From the IMG/VR virus record IMGVR_UViG_3300010234_000031, positions 1 to 36,741 of that record: a stretch of 36,741 bases of DNA; one strand, 5' to 3'. This stretch comes from a virus (Duplodnaviria; Caudoviricetes). The notes under the pieces are model-generated. The model made no database searches. It had not been told where the DNA came from and worked only from the letters and a program-made list of their open reading frames with translations. This document shows, one piece after another, positions 6,844 to 27,254 of this stretch (its first letter is position 1; the number at the start of each line of letters is the position of its first letter). The position numbers and the translations under genes are program-made.

Positions 6844-7551
6844 ATGCAGATTGCAATTCTAACCTGCCTTTGGAAGCGCCACGATCTAGAGCGCTTGTCC
6901 CTACGATGGAATAGAGACGCGCTGGCACGGGCCGGCTTCACGGTAACGCCGCTAGCCGTAGGGAGCGAAGGGAAGGCCAGCAAGGCCGTAGCCGAGAGCG
7001 CGGGATACAACTACCTAGAGGCGCCGAACGAGCCGCTATCCGACAAGCATAACGCCGGGATGGCGTGGCTGGAAGACCGCAAGGTTACGTGGGATGCGGT
7101 AATGATTCTAGGCTCCGATAACTTCGTATCGACCAGCTACGGCCGGCACGTAAAGACGCGGCTAGAGAGAGGCGACCAAGCTATAAGAGCGCGCGGGATC
7201 TATTTCTACGAGCCGGGCGGAGAGCTATTCTACGCTAGGGGATGCAGGACCGGAGCCGGCACCACGATTAGCCGGGCGCTAGCCGGCGGCGTGCGTTACA
7301 GATTTTGGGACGATGGCCTAGACAAAGGCTTAGACGCTAGCATTTACCGGCGTGTCTTGCAAAAGGCGGCGCCGTGCGATATTGTGTACGACCTACCGCG
7401 TAGAGGCGTTGCAATTCTGGACGTAAAGACGGACGTAAACGTAACGACTTGGACGGATGTAAAAGAGCGGTTCAGAATCGCGCCGGTTCCGGCTCCGGCC
7501 TTTTTCGGACAGCATTTCAGAAAGCTAAAACCAGCACTAGACGAGCTATAA
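6844..7551 (+). CDS. GT-A fold glycosyltransferase-like protein 1
   Basis: IAILTCLWKR start, KHNAG, VMILGSDNF (DxD-like position), GLDAS. Confidence 0.7.
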   Translation: MQIAILTCLWKRHDLERLSLRWNRDALARAGFTVTPLAVGSEGKASKAVAESAGYNYLEAPNEPLSDKHNAGMAWLEDRKVTWDAVMILGSDNFVSTSYGRHVKTRLERGDQAIRARGIYFYEPGGELFYARGCRTGAGTTISRALAGGVRYRFWDDGLDKGLDASIYRRVLQKAAPCDIVYDLPRRGVAILDVKTDVNVTTWTDVKERFRIAPVPAPAFFGQHFRKLKPALDEL

Positions 7552-7555
7552 AGTT

Positions 7556-8002
7556 ATGCCGGCAGATAATGGACGGAAATACCTAGGCTACTTCGGGACC
7601 ACGGCGCCAACAGTAGCGCACGATTCCGGGGACGCCAACTACGACCTATGCGGTCTTATGACCGACAAGGCCGTGCAGAGTGCGCGCGCCGCACTGGAAA
7701 CCAGTACGAAAGACGATGGCGACGAATCGACCTTCATCGGCGGCCGTCGTAATTCAACCATAAACGGTACGGCCTATTTCGATCGTACAGAAGACACGGG
7801 GCAAGCCGTTCTGCAAGCCGCCTTCGAATCGGCAACCGGAATAATCTATTTCCTCATTACGACGGATACGGCCGGAGACGAAGAGTTCTACGGGTCCGGC
7901 GTTCTGACCAGTAAGAATATCTCGTTCCCGGACGAGAGCATTATGCAACTGGACTTCTCCATACAGGTTAGCGGCGCGCTGAACCAAGGCGCAGTAACCT
8001 AA
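7556..8002 (+). CDS. Major tail tube protein (TP901-1-like)
   Basis: ETSTKDD...FIGGRRNSTING, FYGSGVLTS, FSIQVSGAL. Confidence 0.85.
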   Translation: MPADNGRKYLGYFGTTAPTVAHDSGDANYDLCGLMTDKAVQSARAALETSTKDDGDESTFIGGRRNSTINGTAYFDRTEDTGQAVLQAAFESATGIIYFLITTDTAGDEEFYGSGVLTSKNISFPDESIMQLDFSIQVSGALNQGAVT

Positions 8003-12809: not shown

Positions 12810-12869
12810 GACGGGTTTCAGTCGGCATTGCGGGAGCGTGACAGCGCCGCAGTGGGAACGCGGTCTACC

Positions 12870-12906
12870 GGGCCGGTCTTTCGCGGGGCCGGCCCATTCT
12901 TTTTTT
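12870..12906 (+). terminator. Rho-independent terminator after tape measure
   Basis: GGGCCGGTCTT-TCGC-GGGGCCGGCCC-ATTCTTTTTTT. Confidence 0.8.
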
Positions 12907-12915
12907 CATCTTTTT

Positions 12916-12990
12916 TGTTGCAAGATGTTGACACATATACAATCCTTGTTGTATGTTTGGAACAAGCGACAACGAAACCACGCCGAAACA
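12916..12990 (+). promoter_or_regulatory. Early promoter cassette P2
   Basis: TTGACA 12928-12933, 18 nt, TATGTT 12952-12957; shared flanking motifs. Confidence 0.8.
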
Positions 12991-13251
12991 ATGACCGCAC
13001 TTGCACTCGCCACTGTCCGCCACGCCACGAAAGCCCTTCTTACCGAGACGAACGAAGCGAAGATCGCTAGGCATTACGAAGTAATAGACGCGGCATACAG
13101 CGGCGCATGGATCGCCGGAACGGACGAGCCAGTGACCACTAACGGCGTCTACCGCTATCAGTATAGCTGGAACCCGTCTTTGGGGTGCAAGGGATGGTAC
13201 AATCTGGATACGGACATTGTGGAAATGGCAGACCCGTACGCCATCCGATAA
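12991..13251 (+). CDS. Hypothetical early protein (86 aa)
   Basis: CGAAACAATG start after P2. Confidence 0.7.
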   Translation: MTALALATVRHATKALLTETNEAKIARHYEVIDAAYSGAWIAGTDEPVTTNGVYRYQYSWNPSLGCKGWYNLDTDIVEMADPYAIR

Positions 13252-13298
13252 CCGAAACCGAAGCCGGGCGCCAATGGCGCCCAAAGACAAGCGAAGCC

Positions 13299-13568
13299 AT
13301 GAACGTTATCCAATTTGCAGAGCGCGTCCGGAATCTCTTCGTAGAAGACAACCGGGAAGAGCTTACAGCCGGCGGAGAAGAGCGCGTAGCCTACGCGTCT
13401 ACGTTTCTGCAACGAGAGTTCCGGGCATTCTTCGAAGGCGAGACGGACGCCTACAGGGCCATCCGGGACGGCATAGCGTGGGGAAGCATTTCGGAGCGCG
13501 TAGGCGCGCGCATGCTAGCGGACGAATACAGCAATACTTGGAAAACCATACACGGGGCGAAGCAATGA
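13299..13568 (+). CDS. Hypothetical protein (89 aa)
   Basis: CGAAGCCATG start; ATGA overlap with next gene. Confidence 0.7.
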   Translation: MNVIQFAERVRNLFVEDNREELTAGGEERVAYASTFLQREFRAFFEGETDAYRAIRDGIAWGSISERVGARMLADEYSNTWKTIHGAKQ

Positions 13569-14248
13569 AAATCACAATCGTAACGCCGGTCTGGAAGCGG
13601 CCGGCCGTATCCATTCCGGTAATCGCTAGCTGGCCTAGGAACGAGATTTGGAATACGGTAATAGTCGGGAGCGAAGGCGCGGCCAGCCGGGAGCTATACG
13701 AAGGCTTCGGTAGCTACATAGAGTATCCGAACAAGCCACTAGGCGCGAAATTCAACGCCGGTATTTTGCACGCGCTAGCCGAAGGCGCGGACTACGTACT
13801 GATAATGGGAAGCGATACGCTGGCGACCGGGGACGCGTGGGGCCGTTGGCAATCGCTAGCCGTGCGCGGAGTGGCCTACGCCGGCGTGCGGGACGCGTGG
13901 ATAGTAAACGCCGTAGAGGCGCGGCTATGGCCGGGCTACACGAACCATAGAGCCGGCCAGCCTATCGGACCGGGCCGCCTTCTATCGGCCGCCACGCTAA
14001 GAGCCAGCGCGCTATACCACCCTGACCTATCGTTTAATCTGGACGCCAGCCTAGACGCCACGCTACCAGAGCCGGACTACGTTCTAGAGCTAGCGGAATC
14101 GGCCGGGTTCGCGTCTCTTAAAACCAGTGGGTCCATTACGTCCACGGGCCGATACAAAGGCGTTACGGAAACTATTAGGGCTTCGGAATTCCTCCGGTTC
14201 TACCACCCGGATCTAATCGGGCTAGCGCCCCTACTGGCTAGGCACTAA
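13565..14248 (+). CDS. GT-A fold glycosyltransferase-like protein 2 (paralog of 6844-7551)
   Basis: ITIVTPVWKR, VGSEG, YIEYPNKPLGAKFNAG, VLIMGSD, NLDAS. Confidence 0.7.
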   Translation: MKITIVTPVWKRPAVSIPVIASWPRNEIWNTVIVGSEGAASRELYEGFGSYIEYPNKPLGAKFNAGILHALAEGADYVLIMGSDTLATGDAWGRWQSLAVRGVAYAGVRDAWIVNAVEARLWPGYTNHRAGQPIGPGRLLSAATLRASALYHPDLSFNLDASLDATLPEPDYVLELAESAGFASLKTSGSITSTGRYKGVTETIRASEFLRFYHPDLIGLAPLLARH

Positions 14249-14255
14249 AAATAAT

Positions 14256-14324
14256 CGTTGTAAGGTGTTGACAATGGTAGCGCGGCGTTGTATTATTACA
14301 ACAAGCAAACGAACAAGCGCCGCC
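14256..14324 (+). promoter_or_regulatory. Early promoter cassette P3
   Basis: TTGACA 14268-14273, 17 nt, TATTAT 14291-14296; perfect GTTGTA-N4-TACAAC. Confidence 0.85.
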
Positions 14325-14711
14325 ATGAAAGCCTACAGAATACTCGGAACGACGGAAGAGCATACAACGTGCTGGAATTGCGGACGCGAAGACCTTACCA
14401 AGACCGTCGTAATGGGCGTGCTGGACGCGGACGGAAACGTAGTAGCCGCCGAATACATGGGGACTACGTGCGCCAGCCACGCCGCGAAGATGGACCAGAA
14501 AGACGTAACGAAGGAAGCGCGCGCGGCGGATACGGCCAAGGCCGAAGCGGAAGCACGCCAGCGCCGCGCGGACAACCGCACAAAGGAAGACGTAATAGCC
14601 GAACGGATCGAAGAAATCTTGGGCATGCCGTTTAGCACCGCAGTTTCTACGCTCGGTCCGGCGGCCATCTGGAAGGCACGCGGCGAAGCAAAACGCCAGC
14701 TTGCCGCATAA
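14325..14711 (+). CDS. Hypothetical Zn-binding protein (128 aa)
   Basis: CWNCGR...GTTCA cysteine pattern plus helical tail. Confidence 0.75.
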   Translation: MKAYRILGTTEEHTTCWNCGREDLTKTVVMGVLDADGNVVAAEYMGTTCASHAAKMDQKDVTKEARAADTAKAEAEARQRRADNRTKEDVIAERIEEILGMPFSTAVSTLGPAAIWKARGEAKRQLAA

Positions 14712-14738
14712 CTCACACAACATAGACCGGACGAAAAA

Positions 14739-15032
14739 ATGACAGTAGCCGAAGCGATCGACCAAGTAAACGCCGCCGCCACGCACGGAAGCGTAGATGG
14801 GCATACGATCTTAGCCACGGACGGGGAAAACGACTTCCGCGTAGAGCGGGTTCTCGAAGGGTTCAGCGTGCGCGTGCATCTGTATATGAATAGCTCGCCC
14901 GTCTTCTACAACGTGGACGCGAAGCACTCCGTAAAGGAAGCATGGCGCCGGCTGGACGAGAAGGTTAGAACGCTGGCGGACGAGCGCCGCGCGACTAGCT
15001 ACAGAAGCGCCTTGGACTTTTTTTCTAATTAA
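14739..15032 (+). CDS. Hypothetical protein (97 aa)
   Basis: ORF with A-rich leader, fills the gap. Confidence 0.7.
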   Translation: MTVAEAIDQVNAAATHGSVDGHTILATDGENDFRVERVLEGFSVRVHLYMNSSPVFYNVDAKHSVKEAWRRLDEKVRTLADERRATSYRSALDFFSN

Positions 15033-15033
15033 T

Positions 15034-15105
15034 TGTTGCAAGGTGTTGACAACAACCCTGTAAGGTTGTATGTTTACAACAAGCAAACGAACAACGGACG
15101 AGACA
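15034..15105 (+). promoter_or_regulatory. Early promoter cassette P4
   Basis: TTGACA 15046-15051, 17 nt, TATGTT 15069-15074; perfect GTTGTA-N4-TACAAC. Confidence 0.85.
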
Positions 15106-15408
15106 ATGACCAACGCCGAAGCCAGAGCAACCGCCGCCACGTTTACCGCACTTGAACAGAAGACCGTTAGCGCCTTCGTTGCATGCCTGTACGCGGAGCC
15201 GGGATTTAGCGACGTAAACGCCCCGGACCTAGTAGTAGAGACGGGAATCCCGATGGCGCAAATGCGCGGCGTCTTGTCTTCCCTGACGCAGAAAGGCGTC
15301 TTGGACGTAGACGAAGAATTCCAGCACGGCGGTTACGGGATTATCTATCTCCGCCAGAAGTTTTACTTCCTGCATCCGGACGAATACTGGCAAGCCGAGT
15401 GCAAGTAG
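15106..15408 (+). CDS. Winged-helix-like protein (100 aa)
   Basis: DLVVETGIPMAQMRGVLSSLTQKGVL wHTH pattern. Confidence 0.65.
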   Translation: MTNAEARATAATFTALEQKTVSAFVACLYAEPGFSDVNAPDLVVETGIPMAQMRGVLSSLTQKGVLDVDEEFQHGGYGIIYLRQKFYFLHPDEYWQAECK

Positions 15409-15427
15409 GCCAGCACGCCCCGGCGCC

Positions 15428-15458
15428 GCCCGTAGTCTTTAAGTAGGCTACGGGCTTT
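15428..15458 (+). terminator. Possible weak terminator
   Basis: GCCCGTAGTCT-ttaagt-AGGCTACGGGC-TTT. Confidence 0.5.
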
Positions 15459-15485
15459 CCGGGTGAAACCAAACGAGACATTACG

Positions 15486-15992
15486 ATGGCACGCGCACAC
15501 TACGTAAAGAAAGCACGCAAGGACAACCCGGTAGCCAAGAAGGGCGAGAGCTACTACTGGTGGAAATTCGCCTTCGGAGCGAAGCGGTACAGCAAGACGA
15601 AGCCGAGAGCCAGCCAGCTTACGCAATCCGCGTACTTCGGCACGCTATACGATCTGGCAGACAGCGTAGATACGAGCCGGGAAGATTTCGAAGAGGCGGC
15701 CGAAGAAATCGGGACCGCGCTACAGGAGCTTTACGAAGAGACCGAAGAGAAGCTATACAACATGCCGGACAGCTTGCAGGAAGCGCCTACCGGCCAGCTT
15801 TTGCAAGAGCGGATGCAAGCGCTGGAATCCGCAATGGAAGAGATCGAAAGCGCCGACCGCCCGGACACGGAGATAGACCGTAGCACTTTCGGATCGGACG
15901 AAGAATGGGACGAAGCCCAAGACGAGCTAGGGGAAGAGATCGACAACTTTTGGAGCGAAATTGAAAACGCGATTTCAGACGCGCAGGTATAG
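15486..15992 (+). CDS. Hypothetical protein with basic N-terminus and very acidic helical C-terminus
   Basis: MARAHYVKKARKD...YYWWKF followed by an E/D-rich region. Confidence 0.8.
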   Translation: MARAHYVKKARKDNPVAKKGESYYWWKFAFGAKRYSKTKPRASQLTQSAYFGTLYDLADSVDTSREDFEEAAEEIGTALQELYEETEEKLYNMPDSLQEAPTGQLLQERMQALESAMEEIESADRPDTEIDRSTFGSDEEWDEAQDELGEEIDNFWSEIENAISDAQV

Positions 15993-15996
15993 AGCT

Positions 15997-16230
15997 ATGC
16001 CAGTAACGACACTAACGGCGGCCAACGTGCAAGTAGAGCTAGATTGTCTGGCCGGCTTGCACGTTGGCGAAGCCAAGAACCTACGAGCCACGGCGCACGC
16101 CGCGCGAAAGGCCGGCGCCCCGTTCTTGGCATGGACCAATACCCAAGCCGCCATACGGGCCATCCAGCAAGCTAGACGCGTACGCGCACTGGCTACTAAA
16201 TTCCGTAACGAGTGGACCACCAACGACTAG
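15997..16230 (+). CDS. Hypothetical protein (77 aa)
   Basis: Tightly packed ORF. Confidence 0.55.
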   Translation: MPVTTLTAANVQVELDCLAGLHVGEAKNLRATAHAARKAGAPFLAWTNTQAAIRAIQQARRVRALATKFRNEWTTND

Positions 16231-16234
16231 AATA

Positions 16235-16687
16235 ATGGCAAAACGAACAGACCTACTGAAAGAGATCCGGAACGCCGTAGACGAGCTAACGGATACCGTA
16301 GCTTCCGGGGACGATACACCGGAGAACCTACGAGCGCACGCCGCCGAAGACCTACGCAGTACAGCGCGCGCACTGGCGCACCACGGCCAGACGCTAACGC
16401 CGGATAGTCCGCCGATGATAGAGAAGACCTACGCGAAGGGAAACGGGAAGCCGGCCGGCACGGTCCGCCTTTGGGCGCTAGGCGATTTCGATTCCTTCGC
16501 GGCGCCCGGAGACGTTTACCTAGATGGCGCCGGCCTAGTGCGGCATGATTCCTTCGGAGGCGCTAGCTACTGGCACCATAGCGGCGTAGAGGACGCGGAA
16601 ACGTGGCGGTGGATTGCAACCGAAATGGGCGCCACCGGGCCGCCATATGAATCCGAAGATGGCGAAACGATTACAAGCTCGAAATAG
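16235..16687 (+). CDS. Hypothetical protein (150 aa)
   Basis: Tightly packed ORF with genome-typical codons. Confidence 0.7.
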   Translation: MAKRTDLLKEIRNAVDELTDTVASGDDTPENLRAHAAEDLRSTARALAHHGQTLTPDSPPMIEKTYAKGNGKPAGTVRLWALGDFDSFAAPGDVYLDGAGLVRHDSFGGASYWHHSGVEDAETWRWIATEMGATGPPYESEDGETITSSK

Positions 16688-16868
16688 CTACGGCCAGATA
16701 TGGCGGTGCCGCGCGTGCGGGTTGTCTGCGGCCGATTGGCACGCGCGGCGCGCGGCCCATAACGGCGTACTTGTCAGGCGCGCGGTACGGTCTTACAAGG
16801 CGGACCCAAGAATATGCACGCAATGCGTCGAAGACATTCAAAAGAGGAAAGAGAATGGAAGACCGTAG
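16659..16868 (+). CDS. Small Zn-finger protein
   Basis: CRAC...CTQC. Confidence 0.55.
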   Translation: MAKRLQARNSYGQIWRCRACGLSAADWHARRAAHNGVLVRRAVRSYKADPRICTQCVEDIQKRKENGRP

Positions 16869-17376
16869 AACGTTCCTAGCGAAGCTCACTGGCGGCGCAC
16901 TGGCCGCGTGGGCCAGCGGCAAGAAGGCCGGCGAAGTGCTGGTAGAGCCGAAGCCAGACGCACTAGCGGAGTACCTAGACGTAGAGATAGCGCGGCCGGC
17001 GCTTCCGGTTAGCGATTGCGTTCTATCGGTACGGCCGGAAGGCGGAGACATAGGGATAAGACTACTATGCGAGAACATAGAACTAGAGCAAACGCGGGAC
17101 GCCTTACGCGGTCCGGACTTGCCTAACTATGCGCCAACCTACAAGGCCGGCAAGCGGCGGAGAAAGATAACGGCGCACCTAGGGCCGGGCGTCTTGTCGC
17201 CACGCATGGCGCAAAGGCTAATGGCTATGGAGCGCGTACAATTCATGGCGGAAGCCAGACCGTACGAAATAGCCGGCCACGGCTTCGTAGTCCAAGTAGA
17301 CCAGTACGAGCCGGACACGGGCGCGCGCGTGGTTATAGAAGTATCTGGAAAGCCGTTAATATCCCACAACGAATAA
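16855..17376 (+). CDS. Twin-arginine-signal protein with a tail-tube-like domain (173 aa)
   Basis: MEDRRTFLAKLTGGALAAWA-S; C-terminal part aligns by eye with the tail tube protein 7556-8002. Confidence 0.6.
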   Translation: MEDRRTFLAKLTGGALAAWASGKKAGEVLVEPKPDALAEYLDVEIARPALPVSDCVLSVRPEGGDIGIRLLCENIELEQTRDALRGPDLPNYAPTYKAGKRRRKITAHLGPGVLSPRMAQRLMAMERVQFMAEARPYEIAGHGFVVQVDQYEPDTGARVVIEVSGKPLISHNE

Positions 17377-17393
17377 CCTAGACCAGCGAAGCA

Positions 17394-17909
17394 ATGCTAT
17401 TACTAGAAGCGGCAAAGAGACACGTAGAGCAAGAGGCCACGGCCGGCGTTACGTGCCCGTGTTGCGGCCAGTACGTCCGTAGATACCGGCGCACGATAAC
17501 GTCCGGGATGGCGCGCGCGTTGATAATGATGCGCAATGCGTCCAGAGACAACCGGGGCCAGTGGCTAAACGTGCTACCAGTGCTGGACGAATCCCCGGAC
17601 GCCGTGCGGCTACGAGCCGACTACACGAAGCTCCGGTTTTGGGGATTGATCGACAACAAGGAAGCGCGGCGCAAAGACGGTAGCAAGCGCGTAGGCGTAT
17701 GGAAGGTTACGCCACTAGGCTATGCCTTCGCGGAAGGGCTTGCATGGATTCCGAAGTACCGGACAATCCAGAACAACGAGCTAATAGACGAAGACGATAC
17801 GGGCGGCCAAGTAAACATAGCCGAAGCGCTAGGCGCCGAGTTCAACTACGCGGAAATAATGCGTACCGGAGATCCGAGCTTTAGGCCAAGCCTATTCCCT
17901 AACAAGTAG
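17394..17909 (+). CDS. Hypothetical Zn-ribbon/wHTH-like protein (171 aa)
   Basis: CPCCGQ; KLRFWGLI...GVWKVTPLG. Confidence 0.7.
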   Translation: MLLLEAAKRHVEQEATAGVTCPCCGQYVRRYRRTITSGMARALIMMRNASRDNRGQWLNVLPVLDESPDAVRLRADYTKLRFWGLIDNKEARRKDGSKRVGVWKVTPLGYAFAEGLAWIPKYRTIQNNELIDEDDTGGQVNIAEALGAEFNYAEIMRTGDPSFRPSLFPNK

Positions 17910-17975
17910 CGTTGCAGAGTATTGACAGCACGCCAGCGGTGTTGTATGTTTACAGCAACTAACAATCTCGAAACG
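17910..17975 (+). promoter_or_regulatory. Early promoter cassette P5
   Basis: TTGACA 17922-17927, 17 nt, TATGTT 17945-17950. Confidence 0.8.
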
Positions 17976-18209
17976 ATGGGAATAACCGAGCGCGTATCCG
18001 AGCAATACAGCCGAATCAGTGAACGCCTTTGGGATCTGACAGACGGCGGCGCCATGCTAACCATAGACGGTTCGCTATGCGTAGACGGATACACGGTAGG
18101 CCATCTAACCCTATCACAAGCGAAGGCGGTATTGTACGTAGCCGAGACGGCGCGAGAGCGCACGATAGAGGCGGCCGTACAGGTCTTCCGCAAGCAAATA
18201 GAAGAATGA
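17976..18209 (+). CDS. Hypothetical protein (77 aa)
   Basis: CGAAACGATG start after P5. Confidence 0.65.
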   Translation: MGITERVSEQYSRISERLWDLTDGGAMLTIDGSLCVDGYTVGHLTLSQAKAVLYVAETARERTIEAAVQVFRKQIEE

Positions 18210-18418
18210 AAAACAAAGACCTTGTAGCCGTCCAGAAATACATTTCGTTGCGGTCCCTAATCGACCGCGCGGGGCTTTCCTACTACGCCGTAATGCAACG
18301 GATATGGAGGAAGACGGAGCAACCGGAAGACGCGCAGAAGGCGTTACGTAAGGCCATGTGGCCGATCAAACGAGCCATAGACAAGGCTCTAGACAAAGAG
18401 GCAAAGAATGGAGCATAG
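18206..18418 (+). CDS. Small basic HTH (Cro-like) regulator candidate
   Basis: SLRSLIDRAGLSYYAVMQRIW helix-turn-helix pattern. Confidence 0.55.
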   Translation: MKNKDLVAVQKYISLRSLIDRAGLSYYAVMQRIWRKTEQPEDAQKALRKAMWPIKRAIDKALDKEAKNGA

Positions 18419-18710
18419 CAATTTTCTAGACGCGCTAGGGGACGTACACGGCGGCCAGCTAATCGAAGAGGCGGACCGCCACCTACGGCAAGTAATAGCG
18501 GCCGTGCGGGAGCGTGGCGGAACGAGCGTGCTAACCTTAAAAATTAAGGTTGCGTCCGTGGCCGAGAATCGCGTAGACGTATCCGGCCAAGTAACGGCCA
18601 AGGTGCCGCCGGCGTCCTATCCGCCGTCTATCTTTTTCACGGACCAAGACAATAGCATTTCGCGGCGAGATCCACGCCAGCACGAAATGAAGTTTCAAGA
18701 CAACGAATAG
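18408..18710 (+). CDS. Conserved partner gene upstream of DUF2303 (YfdP-like)
   Basis: SIFFTDQDNSISRRDPRQ ending; synteny with DUF2303. Confidence 0.7.
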   Translation: MEHSNFLDALGDVHGGQLIEEADRHLRQVIAAVRERGGTSVLTLKIKVASVAENRVDVSGQVTAKVPPASYPPSIFFTDQDNSISRRDPRQHEMKFQDNE

Positions 18711-18721
18711 AGGAAGCCAGC

Positions 18722-19540
18722 ATGGACGAAACGAAAGAAGCCGTACAGGAAATCGCCAAGATGGGCGGAGCCATAACGGCAATGCAGACGCTACCGGAAG
18801 GGCTATTTATCGTGCCGGACGGGTACAGCCTACAAGGCGGCCACCGGGAGAGCGAAGACAGCCAAGAACGGCCGGCGCATAGGCGCGGCCAAGTGAACAT
18901 GAATAACGCCGCGTCTCTTGTGCGCTTCGTGCGGACGCACGGCGTGCCGGACCGGACCGCCATATTTGCGGACCATACGAAAGGCGTTGTCCGGGCCATC
19001 ATAGACTACCACGCTACGAGCTACGAGCCGGGGCACTGTCTCTTTAGCGCGCGGCTACTGGCCGTTTATTCGGAGGCGTTTTCAAAGTGGGACGCCGTAT
19101 GCGGAGGCGGCCAGCGCCAACGAGAGTTTGCGGAGTTTATCGAAGACAACATGCTAGACATAGTAGACCCGGACGGCGCTACGGTCCTAGAAGTGGCGCG
19201 GCACTTGTCGGCCAAGCGGAACGTAGCGTTTCGATCTAAGGTGGATCTGCATTCCGGGGATAACGTCTTTACCTACGAAGAGCAAACCAGCACGGGAGCG
19301 CAGAAAGGAAGCCTAGCCGTGCCGGAATTCGTGACTATCCGCGTGCCGGTCTACGAAGGCGAAGATCCGGAAGAGATTCGTATACGTTTCGGCTTCCGGA
19401 TCGGAGATAACGGTACGCTGGTATTCGTGCCTAGAATTATAGGCATTCAAGCACTGGTGGCCGAAGCCTTCGGACGCCTTTGGGATCGGATGCAAACGAA
19501 CCTAGAAGCGTTCCCGATGCAATACGAAGGCACGCCGTAG
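18722..19540 (+). CDS. DUF2303 (YfdQ-like) protein
   Basis: RAIIDYH...PGH, QREFAEFIEDN, VPEFVTIRVPVYEG. Confidence 0.85.
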   Translation: MDETKEAVQEIAKMGGAITAMQTLPEGLFIVPDGYSLQGGHRESEDSQERPAHRRGQVNMNNAASLVRFVRTHGVPDRTAIFADHTKGVVRAIIDYHATSYEPGHCLFSARLLAVYSEAFSKWDAVCGGGQRQREFAEFIEDNMLDIVDPDGATVLEVARHLSAKRNVAFRSKVDLHSGDNVFTYEEQTSTGAQKGSLAVPEFVTIRVPVYEGEDPEEIRIRFGFRIGDNGTLVFVPRIIGIQALVAEAFGRLWDRMQTNLEAFPMQYEGTP

Positions 19541-19546
19541 AAACGC

Positions 19547-19620
19547 GTAGGGGCGCCCGGCGTGAGTACCGGGCGCCCCTACTACGAAGCCAGCCGGGCG
19601 AAGCAACGCCGGCCGGCTGG
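19547..19620 (+). other. Two GC-rich intergenic hairpins
   Basis: Perfect 14-bp inverted repeat 19547-19560/19569-19582; CCAGCCGG...CCGGCTGG 19590-19620. Confidence 0.65.
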
Positions 19621-19644
19621 AATATAGGTGAACGCCTTTTTTTT

Positions 19645-19714
19645 ACCTAGAGTGTTGCAACTATGTAACGCGCGTTGTATACTTAGAACAAGCAAACGAA
19701 CAAGCGCCGAGACA
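19645..19714 (+). promoter_or_regulatory. Early promoter cassette P6
   Basis: TTGCAA 19655-19660, 17 nt, TATACT 19678-19683; 23 nt of leader identical to P3. Confidence 0.8.
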
Positions 19715-19894
19715 ATGACTATCAACACCACGCCAGTACCGTTCTCCACTAAGGAAGTAGCCGAGAGCTACGCGGCCAAGTACCGCGCCGGAGATCCGGA
19801 ATGGACGTACACGGTAGTCCGCGCCTATGGCGGCGGTTTCGTTATCGTGGTCAAAGACGAAGACAGAGAGACCGTAGACGAAGTAGGAATCTAA
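19715..19894 (+). CDS. Hypothetical protein (59 aa)
   Basis: CGAGACAATG start after P6. Confidence 0.65.
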   Translation: MTINTTPVPFSTKEVAESYAAKYRAGDPEWTYTVVRAYGGGFVIVVKDEDRETVDEVGI

Positions 19895-19912
19895 ATCCAG
19901 ACAAGCGAAGCA

Positions 19913-20806
19913 ATGACAGTAAACGAAGCATTCCACGCAAACCGCCTAACCGGCATAGGCGGGTCCGACGCCGCCACGGTATGCGGCCTAAACCCGTACA
20001 AGAGCGCAGTAGAGCTTTACTACGAGAAACGGGGCGAATCCACGCCGGAAGACATTTCCGACAAGCCGGCGATCCGTTGGGGCAACCTACTAGAGCCACT
20101 GGTAGCGGCGGAGTACATGCGCGAAACCGGCCGCGTGGTGCGGCGCAAGAACGCCATGTTACGCCACAAGGAGCATCCGCATATGATCGCGCACCTAGAC
20201 CGCGTGGTGCAAGGCGAAAGGATCGTGGTAGAGATTAAGACCGTAAGCCAGATAGCCTATGACAAAGGCGATTGGGGACCGGCCGGCACGGACGAAGTGC
20301 CTAGCCATTATCTCTTGCAGGTTCAGCACTACATGGCCGTAACCGGATACCCTGTAGCGCACCTAGCCGTGTTGATCGGCGGCCGGGATTTCCGGCTATA
20401 CGTTATCGAACGGAACGAGGCGCTGATAGAGCATTTGATAGAACGCGAATCGGCGTTCTGGACATGCGTTCTGGAAGGCGTATTGCCGGAAGTGGACTAC
20501 ACAAACCCGCTGGCCGGCGCGGACGTACAGCGTATCTATCCGGACGTTACGGACGAAGTGGTAGAGATTGGAGAACGCGGCGCGGAGATCCACAAGCAAC
20601 TGCGGGAAATTGCCGTGTCCGACAAAGAGAACAAGACCGCCAAGGCCGCACTGCGCGCGGAGCTTGCGGCTATGATCGGCCAAGCCGGCTTCGGCGTTCT
20701 CCCGGATGGCACGGCCTACCGGCGCAAGGCCACGGCGGAGAAATTCGTAAAGGGCTACACGAAGAAAGCCGGCATAGACATGCGCCACGTAAAGGGAGTA
20801 CGCTAA
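19913..20806 (+). CDS. YqaJ/lambda-exonuclease family recombination nuclease
   Basis: RLTGIGGSD, WGNLLEP, AHLDR, EIKT, YLLQVQHYM. Confidence 0.95.
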   Translation: MTVNEAFHANRLTGIGGSDAATVCGLNPYKSAVELYYEKRGESTPEDISDKPAIRWGNLLEPLVAAEYMRETGRVVRRKNAMLRHKEHPHMIAHLDRVVQGERIVVEIKTVSQIAYDKGDWGPAGTDEVPSHYLLQVQHYMAVTGYPVAHLAVLIGGRDFRLYVIERNEALIEHLIERESAFWTCVLEGVLPEVDYTNPLAGADVQRIYPDVTDEVVEIGERGAEIHKQLREIAVSDKENKTAKAALRAELAAMIGQAGFGVLPDGTAYRRKATAEKFVKGYTKKAGIDMRHVKGVR

Positions 20807-20813
20807 AAGAATC

Positions 20814-20884
20814 TGTTGTAGGGTGTTGACATTAACGGGTGGCGTGTTGTATACTTAGAACAAGCAACAACAACGCCGCCCGTT
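20814..20884 (+). promoter_or_regulatory. Early promoter cassette P7
   Basis: TTGACA 20826-20831, 18 nt, TATACT 20850-20855; 22 nt identical to P6. Confidence 0.85.
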
Positions 20885-21094
20885 ATGACTATCAAGAACA
20901 ACATGCAAGCCGCCGCCAACGAGATCGTAAAGACTATCGGCGCAATGGACCCGACGATTTCTAACCGGGACGCCAATAAGTTGGCGCTTGCCTTTATCGT
21001 TCAGGCATGGGCGGAGACGGCGGACGCCGAAGCAATGACCGACGCCGAAGCCAAGCATTTCTTAGAGCAAATCGAAGCGGACCTTTTCGCCTAA
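20885..21094 (+). CDS. Hypothetical protein (69 aa)
   Basis: ORF after P7, between exonuclease and annealase. Confidence 0.7.
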   Translation: MTIKNNMQAAANEIVKTIGAMDPTISNRDANKLALAFIVQAWAETADAEAMTDAEAKHFLEQIEADLFA

Positions 21095-21108
21095 ACCAAC
21101 ACGAAGCC

Positions 21109-21954
21109 ATGCCAGAATTATTCGAACAAGACGGACTAACGCCGGAGCAAAAGGCGGCCTTCTTCCCGGAGGAAGAGGACGCCCCGGAAGCGGCCACGGA
21201 AGAGCAATTAAGTAGCGCCATAGACGAGAGGCTAAAACGAGAAGGCGCGCCGGAGCGAGAGCCGGTAGAAGTGGAGACCGTAGAAGTAGACGCCAGTACG
21301 AAGGAAGGGCCGGCCACGGCTACGGCCATCGTGCCACGCGCTACGCTAACGGCCGCCGCCGGCCAGCGTGTCCAGCCATTGCGCCCGGACTCCGTGGAAG
21401 GCTACTTCCGCCTAGCTCAATACGTAGCGTCTTCGGACCTAGTGCCAAGTAGCTACAAGAACAAGCCGGCAAACGTGCTGGTGGCTATGCAATTCGGCGC
21501 CGAGCTTGGCCTGTCCCCGATGCAAGCCGTACAGAACATAGCCGTAATCGGCGGCCGCCCGGCCGTGTGGGGGGACGCGGTAATAGCTATCGTCTTCGGC
21601 CATCCGCTATTCGTGCAAGAGGCGTTCAGCGAAACGACCGAAGGCGAGTATCCATCGGACGATTTCGCGGCCGTATGCACATGCCAGCGCGAAGGATCGG
21701 AGCCGAAGACCACGCGGTTTAGCATAGCGGACGCGAAGACGGCCGGGCTTTGGGGCGGCAGAGGACCGTGGAGCCAATACCCTAAACGCATGCTGAAAAT
21801 GCGCGCGCGCGGATTCGCCTTGCGGGACTCGTTCCCGGATTCGCTAAAGGGAATGTATCTAGCCGAAGAGGTTGTAACAGTACAACAGGAGCCGTACACT
21901 AGTGGGGCCGCCACGAAATCCGACAAGGTAGCGGCACTACTTGGGGGCGCCTAG
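21109..21954 (+). CDS. RecT/Redbeta-like single-strand annealing protein
   Basis: GAELGLSPMQAVQNIAVIGGRP, PWSQYPKRML..RARGFALRDSFPD.L.G. Confidence 0.88.
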   Translation: MPELFEQDGLTPEQKAAFFPEEEDAPEAATEEQLSSAIDERLKREGAPEREPVEVETVEVDASTKEGPATATAIVPRATLTAAAGQRVQPLRPDSVEGYFRLAQYVASSDLVPSSYKNKPANVLVAMQFGAELGLSPMQAVQNIAVIGGRPAVWGDAVIAIVFGHPLFVQEAFSETTEGEYPSDDFAAVCTCQREGSEPKTTRFSIADAKTAGLWGGRGPWSQYPKRMLKMRARGFALRDSFPDSLKGMYLAEEVVTVQQEPYTSGAATKSDKVAALLGGA

Positions 21955-21961
21955 CGCCCTA

Positions 21962-22030
21962 CGTAAGCGCGTACGGACCCCGGCGGATACAGGCAGTCAC
22001 GTAGGACGCCGGGGCCGCGCGCGCCTTACG
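21962..22030 (+). other. Long structured leader upstream of the replication initiator
   Basis: CGTAAG/CTTACG, CGCG and CCCCGGCG/CGCCGGGG nested stems. Confidence 0.55.
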
Positions 22031-22065
22031 GAGCATTTAACGAAGCCATACAGCGAAGCAAACCG

Positions 22066-22875
22066 ATGGCAGGAAAACCAGCATTCCAATTTTATCCGGG
22101 CGATTGGTTAAAAGACCCGGCGCTAGGCATGTGCGGACCGGCCACCCGTGGCATTTGGGTGGACCTACTATGCGCGTGCTGGAATTCGGACCAAGGGAGC
22201 ATAACCGGGACGCCCCGGCAACTGGCGCGCGTGTGCCGTTGTGACACGGCCGAAATGCGCGAAGCCATCGAAGAGCTAGACGCGCAAGGCGTAGCCGACA
22301 TAACCGAAGACCCGGCCGGCGTGTTTACCGTCGTAAGCCGGCGCATGCAAAGAGACCTTAGAGAGCGCGGCCTAAAGCGTGACCGGGACCGGCGCTACCG
22401 TGAACGAAACGACGGTGGAAGCGACGGTGAAACGACGGGCGATACGACGGCAAAACGCGAAGAGGAAGTAGAAGAAGAAGTAGAAGACCTAGAAAGAGAA
22501 AGGATAGCCGACTTCGAAGCGCGTTTCTGGAATCCGTACGGTAAGAAGATCGACCGGAAGAAATGCTACCGCATGTGGCGGCGGCTAACGGAAGGAGAGC
22601 GCAAGGCCATAGCCGAAGACATTCCGCACTACGTACAGCACGCGCACGATCCGGCATTCCGTAAGAACCCGCTAACGTATCTAAGCGGAAACAACTGGCT
22701 AGACGAAAGGGCAACGACCTACGCGGACCCGGCGGCCAAGCTCGTAACCTACGAAGGCATGCTGGACGCGATAAGCAAGAACGGCAAGAACCAGAGTAGC
22801 ACGGACGATTACGAACGTGTACCGCAGAAAACAGGGAAACCATTATGGCGACTAAAAAGCAAGAAACGTTTATAG
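22066..22875 (+). CDS. Phage replication initiator protein
   Basis: N-terminal PAFQFYPGDWL...RGIWVDLLC; acidic linker; C-terminal FW..YGKK...KNPLTYL...NWLDE. Confidence 0.82.
   Translation: MAGKPAFQFYPGDWLKDPALGMCGPATRGIWVDLLCACWNSDQGSITGTPRQLARVCRCDTAEMREAIEELDAQGVADITEDPAGVFTVVSRRMQRDLRERGLKRDRDRRYRERNDGGSDGETTGDTTAKREEEVEEEVEDLERERIADFEARFWNPYGKKIDRKKCYRMWRRLTEGERKAIAEDIPHYVQHAHDPAFRKNPLTYLSGNNWLDERATTYADPAAKLVTYEGMLDAISKNGKNQSSTDDYERVPQKTGKPLWRLKSKKRL
22409..22503 (+). repeat. Iteron array plus purine tract inside the initiator gene (putative origin, copy B)
   Basis: RCGACGG at 22409, 22421, 22432, 22444, then ACGCGAAGAG at 22455 and a GAA-rich tract. Confidence 0.8.
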
Positions 22876-22993
22876 CCGGCTTCGTCGGCTTCGCACGGCT
22901 AACGTGTATCGTGGGGGCCGGGGTGGCCTTCTACACTGGCAACATAGAAGGCGCCTTTTTCGGACTAGCCGCCTTTTGGGTAATGGGCCAGCC

Positions 22994-23197
22994 ATGAAAG
23001 AGCCGAAGCAAACAATGATAGGCGCCGCGATCGATCTACAGAGCGCGTTCGAAGATGTAGGCGCCGCCTTCGTAGGCGCTACTAAAGCAATAGAAGGCAT
23101 GCGGCCCATATTGTACGAGATCAAGGCGGGCCGCCGCCGGCACATGCGGCGTATGGCGTACATGACATTTCGTAAATGCCGGAGGCAAGGACTATGA
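22994..23197 (+). CDS. Hypothetical protein (67 aa)
   Basis: ATG start; ATGA overlap with next gene. Confidence 0.55.
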   Translation: MKEPKQTMIGAAIDLQSAFEDVGAAFVGATKAIEGMRPILYEIKAGRRRHMRRMAYMTFRKCRRQGL

Positions 23198-23388
23198 AAC
23201 CAGACGCGAAGCCGTGCCCGTTCTGCGGGTCTACCGAAGTGGGCTACACGTACATTAGTGAGCTACGGGACCGTGGCGTAGAGTACGGGTGCATTAGTTG
23301 TTTCCAGTGCGGCGCCAACGCGGCCACGCTCCATAGCTGGAATAACCGCGCCACAGCCCCGCAGGACGAAAAGGAGGCACCGAAATGA
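23194..23388 (+). CDS. Lar-like (restriction alleviation family) Zn-finger protein
   Basis: KPCPFCGS...CFQCGA...WNNR. Confidence 0.75.
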   Translation: MKPDAKPCPFCGSTEVGYTYISELRDRGVEYGCISCFQCGANAATLHSWNNRATAPQDEKEAPK

Positions 23389-23714
23389 CCGAGAAGAAAA
23401 CATTCACCGAGCAGGTTGAGGATATCACGTTTGATACGTTCACTTCGATTTTGCCGAGTCGGTTCGTAGATCCCATTATGCTCACCCCCATCCTTGCCAA
23501 AGCCGAGGCATTGGAGCAGGAAAACGAGCGGCTACGGGATGTTGCGCCAGCGGCACTAAAGCTGGCTAACACGATCGCAAAAGCAGAATCCGAACTCGCC
23601 CGACTGCGGCCCGTCTACGACGCGGCTGTTGAATGGGCCGAAAGCGACACCGCGAGTGCCCACGAGGAGGATGCATTGATGGACGCGGTCAACCTATCTC
23701 GCGCCACAGCCCCG
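23347..23714 (+). repeat. 15-bp direct repeat CGCGCCACAGCCCCG at 23347-23361 and 23700-23714
   Basis: Exact match read from the sequence. Confidence 0.85.
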
Positions 23715-23750
23715 AAGCCCGACCCTTCGGGGGACGGGGCAGACAAATGA
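23385..23750 (+). CDS. Hypothetical coiled-coil protein (121 aa) with atypical composition
   Basis: AAGGAGG RBS; ATGA overlaps on both sides. Confidence 0.75.
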   Translation: MTEKKTFTEQVEDITFDTFTSILPSRFVDPIMLTPILAKAEALEQENERLRDVAPAALKLANTIAKAESELARLRPVYDAAVEWAESDTASAHEEDALMDAVNLSRATAPKPDPSGDGADK

Positions 23751-24052
23751 AACGGACCGAGCGCTACAAGCAATACCGTAAGACCGTGGCGGCCGTAACG
23801 AAGCTGGCGAGAGCCGAAGGCGTACCGGGCTACACGTACGGAGCTACGCTAGACCATATCGTGCCGGTCTCGTTCGGGTTCAAGCACGGCATAGACCCGG
23901 CGCTAATCGGCGCCAATTCGAATCTACAGTGGATGGACCTAAACGCGAACATCCAGAAGGGCGCCGGCATAACCGCCGAAGCCATCCAGAAGTTACGCGG
24001 GTGGGGATGTACTACCTTGGCGGACACGGAAGAGTACAAGCTAGACCGATGA
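23747..24052 (+). CDS. HNH-like nuclease domain protein (101 aa)
   Basis: LDHIVPV...NLQWM...NIQKG. Confidence 0.7.
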   Translation: MKRTERYKQYRKTVAAVTKLARAEGVPGYTYGATLDHIVPVSFGFKHGIDPALIGANSNLQWMDLNANIQKGAGITAEAIQKLRGWGCTTLADTEEYKLDR

Positions 24053-24228
24053 ATGCCGCGATAAGCAAAGAGTACGTAGACGCGCTAGAGTGGCTACACG
24101 AAGCACTGGTAGAGTGGCTGTCTAATCCGAACCCGGCAACGATAACCGTGCTACACAAGGCCGCCAACAGAGCCACGGACGCGCGCCTAGCGTTCTACCA
24201 AACCAGAAAGCCAGCGGGGCAAGCGTAA
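24049..24228 (+). CDS. Hypothetical protein (59 aa)
   Basis: Translationally coupled overlaps. Confidence 0.6.
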   Translation: MNAAISKEYVDALEWLHEALVEWLSNPNPATITVLHKAANRATDARLAFYQTRKPAGQA

Positions 24229-24395
24229 TGGGCCGGAAGCTAACGAAGCCATCCAGCACAAGTACAGCCAGCGCCATCAAGAGCGTAACGATAACCGTAC
24301 GCCGGACCAGTGGGCCGAACACGGACCAGACGATAAAAGACCCGGACGTATTGCGCGCGGCCTTGTGGCAACTACTAGACGAGATACCGATATGA
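24228..24395 (+). CDS. Hypothetical protein (55 aa, MGRKLTKP...LLDEIPI)
   Basis: TAATG and ATGA overlaps; below ORF track cutoff. Confidence 0.5.
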   Translation: MGRKLTKPSSTSTASAIKSVTITVRRTSGPNTDQTIKDPDVLRAALWQLLDEIPI

Positions 24396-24586
24396 GAATC
24401 TTTAACACGGAACGTACAAGGTGCCTAGAGTGCCGCATGCCGGACGCGCCGAACGTGGCGACCTTGGAGATAGGCGGAGCGCGTACGTACTTGTGCGCCG
24501 ACTGTAGAGGGCTACTGGCTACCGTGCTACGAACCTTCCGAAGACAGAACGACAAGACCGGCCGGGGGGCCGCTAGGCATGCTTGA
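24392..24586 (+). CDS. Small Zn-finger protein
   Basis: CLEC...YLCADC. Confidence 0.6.
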   Translation: MRIFNTERTRCLECRMPDAPNVATLEIGGARTYLCADCRGLLATVLRTFRRQNDKTGRGAARHA

Positions 24587-24872
24587 ATCCATAGCGGATA
24601 ATATGTACGTAATTCTATTGGGCGCATTTGCCGGCGCGCTTGTCTTTCTATTAGCGTTATACGTTGGTCGGCTATCTGTTATCGTCCGGGATCTACCGCG
24701 CGCAATGGAAGGGCCGGTGCCGATGAGGCCGGAAGCCGGCGAGAGCTACACGGACAACGCCGGCATACGATGGACATGCGACCACGTATACACGTATTCG
24801 GACGGGAGAACAGAGGCATTCTGGTTCACGATGGACCCAAAAGCAAAGAGGCTAGCACGAAATGGGAAATAA
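24579..24872 (+). CDS. Single-TM membrane protein
   Basis: YVILLGAFAGALVFLLALYV hydrophobic helix. Confidence 0.65.
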   Translation: MLESIADNMYVILLGAFAGALVFLLALYVGRLSVIVRDLPRAMEGPVPMRPEAGESYTDNAGIRWTCDHVYTYSDGRTEAFWFTMDPKAKRLARNGK

Positions 24873-25029
24873 GAAGCCACGCAAGGCGCCGCCGGTTACG
24901 CTAGTGCCGTACGCCTTCGAACAAGCACACCGGGCCAGCATGCGCGCGGAGCTTAAAAAACGCCGGAAGGCCGTAGCCAGAGGGCATATAAATGCTAAAC
25001 CGAATCAAGAGACTAAGGCGGAGGATTAA
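24862..25029 (+). CDS. Small basic hypothetical protein (55 aa)
   Basis: Fills the gap with overlaps on both sides. Confidence 0.4.
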   Translation: MGNKKPRKAPPVTLVPYAFEQAHRASMRAELKKRRKAVARGHINAKPNQETKAED

Positions 25030-25240
25030 GGGATTCCGTACCGGCGTGTATTCCGAAGAGTGGAAGCCGGACCCGTCCAAAACGTGCGGCAACTGTTACG
25101 CATTTGGCGCCGTGGCTGGCGTATGCTACCAGTACGCCGGGTCAGAATTCCGGAAGAGCAAAACGCCGGAGGACACATGCGCATTTCACGAGCAAAGGCG
25201 GAAGCGAGAGACCACGGGAAAAGGAGGGCCAAAGACATGA
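24992..25240 (+). CDS. Cys-rich hypothetical protein
   Basis: TCGNC...C...TCAFH. Confidence 0.55.
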   Translation: MLNRIKRLRRRIKGFRTGVYSEEWKPDPSKTCGNCYAFGAVAGVCYQYAGSEFRKSKTPEDTCAFHEQRRKRETTGKGGPKT

Positions 25241-25491
25241 TAGAGGAAGTATGGAAGCGCCACGCCGTCCGGTACTTTTGGGATAACGGGTACAGCACTT
25301 CGTCCATAGCGGCGCTACTCGGCATGCGCATAGCCAGCGTGTACCTAATCCTTACGGCCTACGTAGGCACGGAGGAACGAGACGGCCTACGAGCGCGCCT
25401 AGAAGCGGCGCACATGGACCAGCTACCAGCGTACCGGAAAACGACCATAACGGTAGAGGCTGGCACGCGTAGATCAATTCGCGGCGTATAG
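25237..25491 (+). CDS. HTH protein, candidate late-transcription regulator
   Basis: GYSTSSIAALLGMRIASVYLIL; AAGGAGG RBS; last gene before the lysis promoter. Confidence 0.6.
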   Translation: MIEEVWKRHAVRYFWDNGYSTSSIAALLGMRIASVYLILTAYVGTEERDGLRARLEAAHMDQLPAYRKTTITVEAGTRRSIRGV

Positions 25492-25492
25492 C

Positions 25493-25521
25493 TGGACAAC
25501 GTGCGCCGGCGGCCGTATTGT
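25493..25521 (+). promoter_or_regulatory. Putative promoter for the lysis cassette
   Basis: TGGACA, 17 nt, TATTGT, followed by a CAACAACAAC leader. Confidence 0.55.
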
Positions 25522-25554
25522 TATCACAACAACAACCGCTAGCCACCGTGCGCC

Positions 25555-26190
25555 GTGGATCAAATACAGCACTACCTTATCGCGCTAGCTAGTGCGGTAC
25601 TTACTGTTCTAATAGTGTGGGTCCACCGCGCCCGGCTAACCGAAGCCGTAATGCGAAACATAGCCAAGCCAGTAGCCACGGCACGCACGTATGCGGACGC
25701 CGTGGGCGATTGGGTAGGCTTCGTTCAACTACGGGAGATTGCCCTATTCGTGTGGACCGGAGGCGACACGATCTTGTGGGACGCCAACGCGTGCGAAATG
25801 TGGGGCATGCCCGTAGAGAACCCGGAGCCGGGCCGCCTTTATTCCGTCCGCTACGAAGATTGGGCCGCGCGCGTATGGGACGAAACAGAATTAGCGCGAA
25901 GCCAGACCCTAGTATCCGAAGCTCTAGCCACCGGGGCGCCATACCAAAGTATTATCAAAGGCCGTGGCGTAAGTGGTAGGTCTTTTCGCGTTCTCTCTAT
26001 TGGGAGCGTGGCAGAAACCGAAGACGGCAAAAAAGAGATACGGGGAATCTCTATATCTTTGCACGGATCGGTAGACGCCGACTCGCCCTATGACACTATT
26101 ATGACGCGTTTACAATCCATGACCGCGCGCACGGAAGGCACTTTCGAAGAAGCGAAAGCCCTAAGAGCGGAGCGTAAAAAATTCTGGTAG
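25555..26190 (+). CDS. Membrane-anchored PAS (PAS_3-like) domain protein
   Basis: N-terminal TM helix; FVW...ILWDANACEMWGM, YEDWAARVW...VSEALATGAPY, GRSFRVLSIGSV..EDG...IRGISI follow the PAS/PAC pattern. Confidence 0.75.
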   Translation: MDQIQHYLIALASAVLTVLIVWVHRARLTEAVMRNIAKPVATARTYADAVGDWVGFVQLREIALFVWTGGDTILWDANACEMWGMPVENPEPGRLYSVRYEDWAARVWDETELARSQTLVSEALATGAPYQSIIKGRGVSGRSFRVLSIGSVAETEDGKKEIRGISISLHGSVDADSPYDTIMTRLQSMTARTEGTFEEAKALRAERKKFW

Positions 26191-26195
26191 GAACA

Positions 26196-26510
26196 ATGCC
26201 CGAAGGTGCAGGCGTGTGGATAGTGCAAGCCGTGGCAATTCCTGTTGTATCGGCTCTATTCTTGTGGGTCCGTACTCTTGTAAAGGAGAAGGACGCCTTG
26301 CAGGAGAAGCGCATAGAAACGCTGGAAAGAATGCTACAGAATTACAACGACGCCGTACGCGTGGTAGAGGCTTCTTTCGAGCTACAGAAGGAAGGCAAGC
26401 TGGTAACGGCGGCCTTCCAAGAACGCGTAACCGAGTACATTCAGGACGCGCGCAATTTCCAAGCGAACGCAATTACTACGTTTGCGGAATTAAAACAGAG
26501 CCGGGACTAG
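26196..26510 (+). CDS. Holin/antiholin-like protein (1 TM + coiled coil)
   Basis: WIVQAVAIPVVSALFLWV followed by a charged helix; upstream of endolysin. Confidence 0.55.
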   Translation: MPEGAGVWIVQAVAIPVVSALFLWVRTLVKEKDALQEKRIETLERMLQNYNDAVRVVEASFELQKEGKLVTAAFQERVTEYIQDARNFQANAITTFAELKQSRD

Positions 26511-26599
26511 GCATGCTAGAGCGAATCTCCATAGACGTTCTACCGCCGATGGACCCGGCGCTAATACCAACCGACAACCCCGAAGCCCCTAGGTACATT

Positions 26600-26782
26600 A
26601 TGAACAAGTTTAAAGCGCTACAGTGGATCTTGAAGGCCGGCGGCCTTCTAATGCTAATCGCGGATTGGCTACCGGATACGCTGGAAGACAAGAAGATCAG
26701 CTACGCCGAAATGGTAGACCTAGGCGAACGGATTGCCCGGCACTTCGGCATAGACGTAGACAAGCAGGGAATAGAAATCTAG
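26600..26782 (+). CDS. Small lysis-cassette protein (alternative start 26513)
   Basis: Amphipathic/hydrophobic N-terminus; abuts endolysin. Confidence 0.5.
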   Translation: MNKFKALQWILKAGGLLMLIADWLPDTLEDKKISYAEMVDLGERIARHFGIDVDKQGIEI

Positions 26783-26786
26783 AGGC

Positions 26787-27218: not shown

Positions 27219-27219
27219 T

Positions 27220-27248
27220 GTGACAAAGTTTCCGGAGCCGGCTATATT
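27220..27248 (+). promoter_or_regulatory. Putative promoter for the tail-tip operon (leaderless)
   Basis: GTGACA, 17 nt, TATATT; ATG begins 7 nt after the -10. Confidence 0.5.
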
Positions 27249-27254
27249 GCGAAC

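Follow-up and report, generated by a model that had tools for sequence, protein, structure and literature searches.

This locus raises the question of why a tailed phage should carry, among its early genes, a protein that begins with what resembles a Tat-type export leader and continues as what resembles its own tail tube. The window, i.e., the whole stretch of 36,741 nucleotides that was analyzed, is the linear record of a tailed phage with a CheckV completeness of 88%, and the gene under study will be called P0001. The answer we prefer, with a probability of roughly 0.38, is that P0001 may act as a decoy against host proteins that sense tail tubes, a predicted function that is weighed below against its rivals.

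P0001 is a genuine gene. Its ATG has a pairing energy of -6.0, the best or tied best of the five listed in-frame starts, and its GC3 of 0.65 and codon index of 0.71 are similar to those of the remaining genes of the phage. The encoded protein has the N-terminus MEDRRTFLAKLTGGALAAWAS, and the 5' end of the gene overlaps the 3' end of a CxxC-bearing ORF at 16647-16868. The features on which the argument draws are as follows.

16855..17376, plus strand: P0001, a protein of 173 aa with a leader and a predicted tube fold, recognized by its ORF, ribosome-binding site and codon use
16843..16848, plus strand: ribosome-binding site AGAGGA, 6 nt upstream of the ATG
16855..16920, plus strand: putative Tat-type leader, residues 1-22, with D-R-R-T-F-L, 12 uncharged residues, A-W-A and K-K
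16921..17001, plus strand: Pro/Glu-rich linker, residues 23-49, containing a candidate GTG start at 16936
16927..16950, plus strand: patch in the linker that matches the presumed tail-terminator gene (6500-6522) at 23 of 24 nt, with VLVEP in the same frame
17002..17373, plus strand: predicted tail-tube-fold domain, residues 50-173, from the Atlas model, the AlphaFold model on the tube alignment, and the complex model
7556..8002, plus strand: the phage's own tail-tube gene, P0002, from PF06199 (27.1 bits, cut-off 23.8) and phrog_1407 (E 4e-9)
15046..15074, plus strand: sigma-70-type promoter repeat nearest upstream of P0001, TTGACA-17-TATGTT, a consensus match with putative activity

Translation from the main start takes in the leader, as the preliminary description had it, although a weaker candidate, the GTG at 16936 (residue 28, pairing -5.0), lies downstream and could possibly yield a leaderless form of P0001. 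The patch shared with the terminator gene is equaled by 1 of 300 codon shuffles at the DNA level and, at the protein level, by 406 of 1000, which is not significant; as a post-hoc lead, it may be either the scar of a recombination event or another virion fragment.

With regard to the genome setting, the genes for head morphogenesis, protease-capsid, connectors, tube, and tape measure (to 12809) are followed by an early/replication block of 14.4 kb (12810-27254), which stands between the genes for tape measure and hub and contains small genes together with replication genes (RecE, RecT, Lar-like, and a replication protein). The hub and more tail genes resume from 27255, followed by the terminase and the beginning of what is presumably a portal gene. 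The tape measure and hub are adjacent in related loci (L005, L020), so that the tail module is split here by the early block. This arrangement qualifies the distance of 9 kb from the tail operon given in the preliminary description: the tube gene is indeed 8.9 kb away but the end of the tape measure is only 4 kb away, P0001 being close to the one yet far from the other because of this split. The location among early genes is upheld, for P0001 lies within the block that holds the replication genes and six copies of the promoter repeat (12928, 14268, 15046, 17922, 19655, and 20826). It sits between the copies at 15046 and 17922, a position from which we infer that it is expressed early.

Several other features of the record were observed in passing. 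The promoter-repeat copies carry a common downstream ACAAGC-rich tract, and a terminator-like hairpin (12870-12895) stands ahead of the first of them. The gene at 6844-7551, which resembles a glycosyltransferase by eye only and has no Pfam or PHROG match, immediately precedes the tube gene, as it does in most related loci, and the early block holds a second gene (13565-14248) whose N-terminus is related to that of the first. The ORF at 25555-26190, just before the presumed lysis genes, is hydrophobic over a stretch of its N-terminus and matches PAS_3 weakly (E 0.13), and two neighboring, similar-looking acidic proteins of 460 aa with no PHROG match (30424-31803 and 31808-33217) are encoded in the distal tail region.

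The preliminary description had proposed that P0001 starts with a twin-arginine signal, and the elements that it named can be seen in the sequence: the RRTFL motif occupies 16864-16878, and A-W-A, a candidate for the signal-peptidase site that is optional in Tat substrates, falls at residues 18-20, followed by K-K. Residues 3-8, D-R-R-T-F-L, satisfy near the N-terminus the pattern Z-R-R-x-hydrophobic-hydrophobic, by which the Tat motif is defined in the available text of PMC13673990. The leader is weak, however, since the net positive n-region is absent (M-E-D-R-R has two acidic and two basic side chains, net charge 0) and neither PF10518 nor the NCBIfam signal models match it, PF10518 having no match anywhere in the record. 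Its h-region of 12 uncharged residues compares with a median of 14 in the class of phage leaders described below, where 23 of 63 have 12 or fewer, and its hydropathy of 1.33 with a median of 1.81, with 7 of the 63 sampled leaders equally low. On a profile built from 59 phage RR leaders, that of P0001 ranks first among the 765 candidate N-termini of the window (E 0.016), a ranking that is partly circular because the 59 were chosen by the motif. When the motif is excluded, the h-region falls in the top 1% of 5123 background 15-mers, and 7 of the 59 leaders score as low as it does. From its sequence, then, the N-terminus is tentatively read as a Tat-type leader at the weak end of the phage class, with export only predicted.

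The class was obtained by sampling viral contigs for a start followed by RR-x-F-hydrophobic patterns, with a KK pattern as control. An h-region follows the motif in 105 of 131 distinct phage ORFs with RR and in none of 12 with KK, a pattern that did not mirror the RR ones exactly; this suggests that RR leaders are selected in phages. For their cargoes, 81 and 71 RR loci were reduced to 61 and 50 by dropping duplicates and very short ORFs, leaving 111, and virion-protein fragments (E <=0.005) were found in 11 of these, short ones, versus 0 of 48 upstream neighbors (Fisher p 0.035), a control that may contain spurious frames and in which two of the 48 are whole structural genes. Seven fragments come from the head, adaptor, or sheath (four major-head, one head scaffold or cement, one head-tail adaptor, and one sheath); the remaining four are one collar, one tape-measure, one fibre-like, and one minor-tail fragment. 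Kept in the 111 and not counted as fragments were L058 and L209, where the motif lies within a real portal and a real capsid, the apparently whole terminase of L046, and L047, L082, L114, and L216, whose matches had E >0.005. The cargoes of the class as a whole are highly varied. As a separate observation, the L046 ORF (701-1423), immediately downstream of the small-subunit gene, encodes a terminase large subunit that opens with an RR leader and an h-region.

Three members looked by eye like tubes, namely L095:388-723 (half a tube), L163:701-1135 (a permuted tube), and L189:391-723 (a tube without the hairpin). They were left unconfirmed at hhalign E values of only 0.043 and 0.4, they gave no second match in their own records and nothing useful in cultured phages, and no relatives of L095 were found; a phmmer match of L163 to the P0001 domain (E 0.14) was rejected as homology. 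In the sampled contigs, the search for the same architecture in other phages that the preliminary description had suggested yielded RR leaders joined to virion fragments and no confirmed further leader-plus-tube protein. P0001 fits, by its sequence, a broad class of RR-leader ORFs that carry pieces of virion proteins.

The make-up of this class bears on the most direct alternative, in which P0001 is an envelope protein for superinfection exclusion: a monomer or ring exported by Tat, either anchored or cleaved, that binds an incoming tape measure or tail and blocks DNA entry. A Tat leader in front of a folded domain is most simply read in this way, and the four collar, fibre-like, minor-tail, and tape-measure fragments would suit it. 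Tat leaders include both cleaved and uncleaved classes, according to the available text of PMC13673990. TatC is present in all five tested prophage-bearing genomes with 36-39% identical terminases. Terminases related to that of the phage (mostly 34-41% identical among the full-length ones) occur chiefly in genome bins of Ignavibacteria and other Bacteroidota-like groups, a weak hint that the host may be of this kind. Envelope proteins for exclusion are reportedly known, such as P22 SieA and that of T5, which counts in its favor. Against it, the seven head, adaptor, and sheath fragments have no obvious envelope target, the siphophage tube remains outside the cell, and no integrase was found in the phage record, so that there is possibly no lysogen to protect. 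Exclusion, the main rival of the decoy reading, is in our judgment somewhat unlikely.

The second half of P0001 was described as aligning by eye with the phage's own tail tube in five blocks. All five are given back by hhalign with a four-sequence tube profile, but on sequence alone the likeness is barely above chance. BLASTP of P0001 against its own tube is not significant (E 6.6), and of four statistical tests, carried out with a comparison set of 62 close tube relatives, one was clearly positive, one marginal, and two not positive. The positive one is the mean BLOSUM45 score against 21 of the 62 close tubes, for which P0001 reaches z 3.8 (1 of 500 shuffles; the best of several tests), a value that exceeds those of all 28 control genes (maximum z 2.1); the same score is equaled by 72 of 2000 shuffles against the own tube alone and reaches only z 1.1 against 11 distant tubes. 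Marginal results came from hmmsearch (18 and 44 of 1000 shuffles equally good), and those of hhalign against tube profiles (E 0.028-0.16) and of an averaged PSSM (99-290 of 1000 shuffles equal, not significant) were not positive. In one alignment, the domain shows 17-25% identity with the close tube clade. On the basis of the one clear test, the domain likely has its origin in the tube family that this phage lineage carries, the gene at 7556-8002 representing the likely source lineage.

In other respects P0001 is an orphan. No homologs were found among 5.8 billion proteins (word-index search, lengths 95-303), in a full scan of 1.84 billion representatives, or in viral contigs and five related records; Pfam and PHROGs gave no families at E <=1, a search that the own tube passes, and neither a PDB sequence search nor PADLOC gave a match. 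The loci of related phages, mostly covering the structural region only, showed no Tat-type ORF and no second tube copy. A tblastn match in the Gordonia phages Floral and Pollux (E 0.03) contains a stop and spans two genes, and was set aside as chance.

Structure prediction points more firmly to a tube. In the Atlas model, which is independent of the tube alignment (pTM 0.57, pLDDT 0.66), all the named structure rows are tail-tube clusters, covering residues 51-173 with TM 0.62-0.75 by domain, and the top structural match is a nameless 80-member viral cluster of 179 aa (TM 0.75). AlphaFold on the tube alignment gives the domain a pLDDT of 89, and its model matches the solved tube 8qhs with Z 10.9 and an rmsd of 4.6 Å over 122 aligned residues, solved tubes heading the fold list and Hcp and distal-tail proteins following; this model is biased by its input and speaks for compatibility with the tube fold only. 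A complex model of the domain with two own tubes scores 0.61, versus 0.01 for the best of three controls, with a contact agreement of at least 66% and a pLDDT for the partner of at least 77 (77-80) without an alignment. Among solved complexes, 116 of 157 attain the mark used for this score, as do 2 of 215 mismatches, figures that apply here only roughly, and P0001 may pass the mark through likeness to solved rings; the Atlas and complex models come from related model families and are not fully independent. Residues 50-173 are therefore described as a predicted whole tail-tube fold, a beta-sandwich with a helix and a long hairpin, and the Atlas rows and the complex model bear out the fold proposed in the preliminary description.

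It appears very unlikely that the tube likeness stems from a prediction artefact and that P0001 has some other beta-rich fold. The weak sequence tests and the modest Atlas scores would agree with it, as would a single-sequence AlphaFold model with a pLDDT of 33, whose fold search matched no tube; it is opposed by the uniformity of the Atlas rows, by the confidence reached for the partner without an alignment, and by the z score of P0001 against its own tube clade. We consider it equally improbable that P0001 is a minor virion part, i.e., a distal-tail or initiator-like protein with a tube fold. The nearest named language-model clusters, DUF6711 (0.87) and DNA_circ_N (0.86), which we take to be tail-hub-like folds, would favor such a part while falling below the bar of 0.9, and Dit structures rank low in the fold list; its leader and its place in the early block argue otherwise, and the tail operons of related loci yielded no counterpart.

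The complex model also makes a statement about ring pairing, in that residues 74-83 of P0001 are predicted to strand-pair with residues 116-124 of the tube, so that the ring-edge strand is predicted to be retained. What is changed are the parts by which tubes stack. The N-terminal arm of a tube takes part in ring stacking; P0001 lacks the arm of the tube family and has the leader and linker instead. The invariant S-x-K-D-x-G hairpin tip of the family reads RGPDLPN in P0001, and columns invariant across 39 close tubes are replaced in the arm and hairpin tip, while the core glycines 99, 141, 143, and 165 are retained. In composition, P0001 is neutral (K+R/D+E of 16/16) whereas the tube is acidic (9/21), and it has 9 S+T residues versus 29. 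In the available text of PMC10973363, the hairpin interlocks the rings of a solved tail tube, and since its tip is lost in P0001, the protein would build no DNA channel and presumably cannot stack into a tube.

A protein that could join a ring and not stack might poison tail assembly in the cytoplasm, where the domain (possibly as the leaderless form from residue 28) would enter the tube rings of a co-infecting phage and halt tail growth. The predicted pairing, the lost stacking motifs, and the second start would all be in keeping with it, and blockers of tail assembly are known, i.e., Tai (PMC11364771) and Tab (PMC10884400), as far as the available portions of these sources go. In the model, however, the domain pairs with the phage's own tube, so that the phage would poison itself; moreover, no counter-gene was identified, and the known blockers are prophage or satellite genes, whereas this phage has no detected integrase. 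We regard this role as quite unlikely. The predicted ring edge would equally serve superinfection exclusion, the alternative introduced above.

A further alternative makes the cargo a passenger of a leader that is either the active part or a relic, the Tat channel being jammed or occupied, or the gene being a recent fusion in decay. Such an origin would suit the varied cargoes of the class, the orphan status of P0001, its weak leader, and the patch of terminator-gene DNA, which suggests a recombinational patchwork. On the other side, the whole fold and its core glycines persist despite about 80% sequence change, which argues for selection on the domain, and codon use is fully genome-like. This explanation seems unlikely.

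The decoy reading, which we prefer, would work in the following manner. P0001, if expressed early as its position suggests, would be made before the real tube, and its tube-fold domain would bind a putative host protein that recognizes tail tubes. The Tat leader, if recognized by the host, would then tether the bound sensor at the membrane or remove it via Tat, and export would keep the mimic clear of the phage's own tail assembly late in infection. To our knowledge, pieces of the head, head-tail adaptor, and sheath never reach the envelope of an infected cell, and because seven of the 11 class cargoes are of these kinds, a cytoplasmic target would better explain the class. Virion proteins are of the kind detected by bacterial sensors (PMC12409349, available text), and the decoy reading is preferred since most class cargoes have no evident envelope target and would be detectable by such sensors. 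The closest precedent, in the available text of PMC10973363, is that a tail tube activates DSR2 and that the phage protein DSAD1 mimics the tube and blocks DSR2.

Several points speak against a decoy. By analogy with DSR2, which grips the tube hairpin according to the same available text of PMC10973363, the part most altered in the P0001 domain would be the very part that a sensor holds. Export would take P0001 out of the cytoplasm, which is the site of sensor action. The leader is weak, the protein is an orphan, and the tube-alignment model is biased. In addition, a large sensor may fail to pass Tat.

A broader proposal, which we offer as a speculation that is rather unlikely to hold in full, is that phages use the host Tat system for a bait-and-remove counter-defence, in which a large class of early genes fuses Tat leaders to sensed virion parts; P0001 would be its whole-domain tail-tube member, carrying bound tube sensors to the membrane or through it. 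Should the leader be functional, phages would be exploiting folded-protein export for copies of their own structural proteins, and the outcome would be either a new way to counter defences that sense virion proteins or a novel type of superinfection exclusion derived from the injection tube. The list of class cargoes could then reveal which phage parts, beyond the known triggers, are sensed by bacteria.

The comparison with known systems can be made part by part. With the siphophage tubes (PF06199 Phage_tail_2, TP901-1/lambda gpV-type; 8qhs, 6v8i, 8k36) P0001 shares, according to the models, the beta-sandwich, helix, and hairpin; it differs from them in having no Pfam match, no arm, and no hairpin-tip motif, in being neutral, and in lying in the early block. 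With Tat signal peptides (PF10518; PMC13673990, available text) it has in common the RR motif, the uncharged stretch, and a folded passenger, but its n-region is not net positive, its h-region is short, it falls below the Pfam model, and it is encoded by a phage in whose record no TatA was found. The mobile-element proteins Tai and Tab act on tail assembly (PMC11364771, PMC10884400); they are prophage or satellite genes with counter-genes, and the available portions of these sources do not describe them as tube copies or as exported. DSAD1, a stand-in for the tube before an immune sensor (PMC10973363), is by analogy the proposed mode of P0001, which would differ in being a diverged tube-fold domain with a leader, the available text mentioning no export leader for DSAD1. 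A literature search, mainly of open-access text without supplements, returned no description of a Tat-type leader joined to a tail-tube fold; the parts, a tube fold and a Tat leader, are known, and their combination is new as far as the open literature was searched. P0001 would work like a mimic of a structural protein, one that stands outside the tube family by its profile, its gene position, and its stacking motifs.
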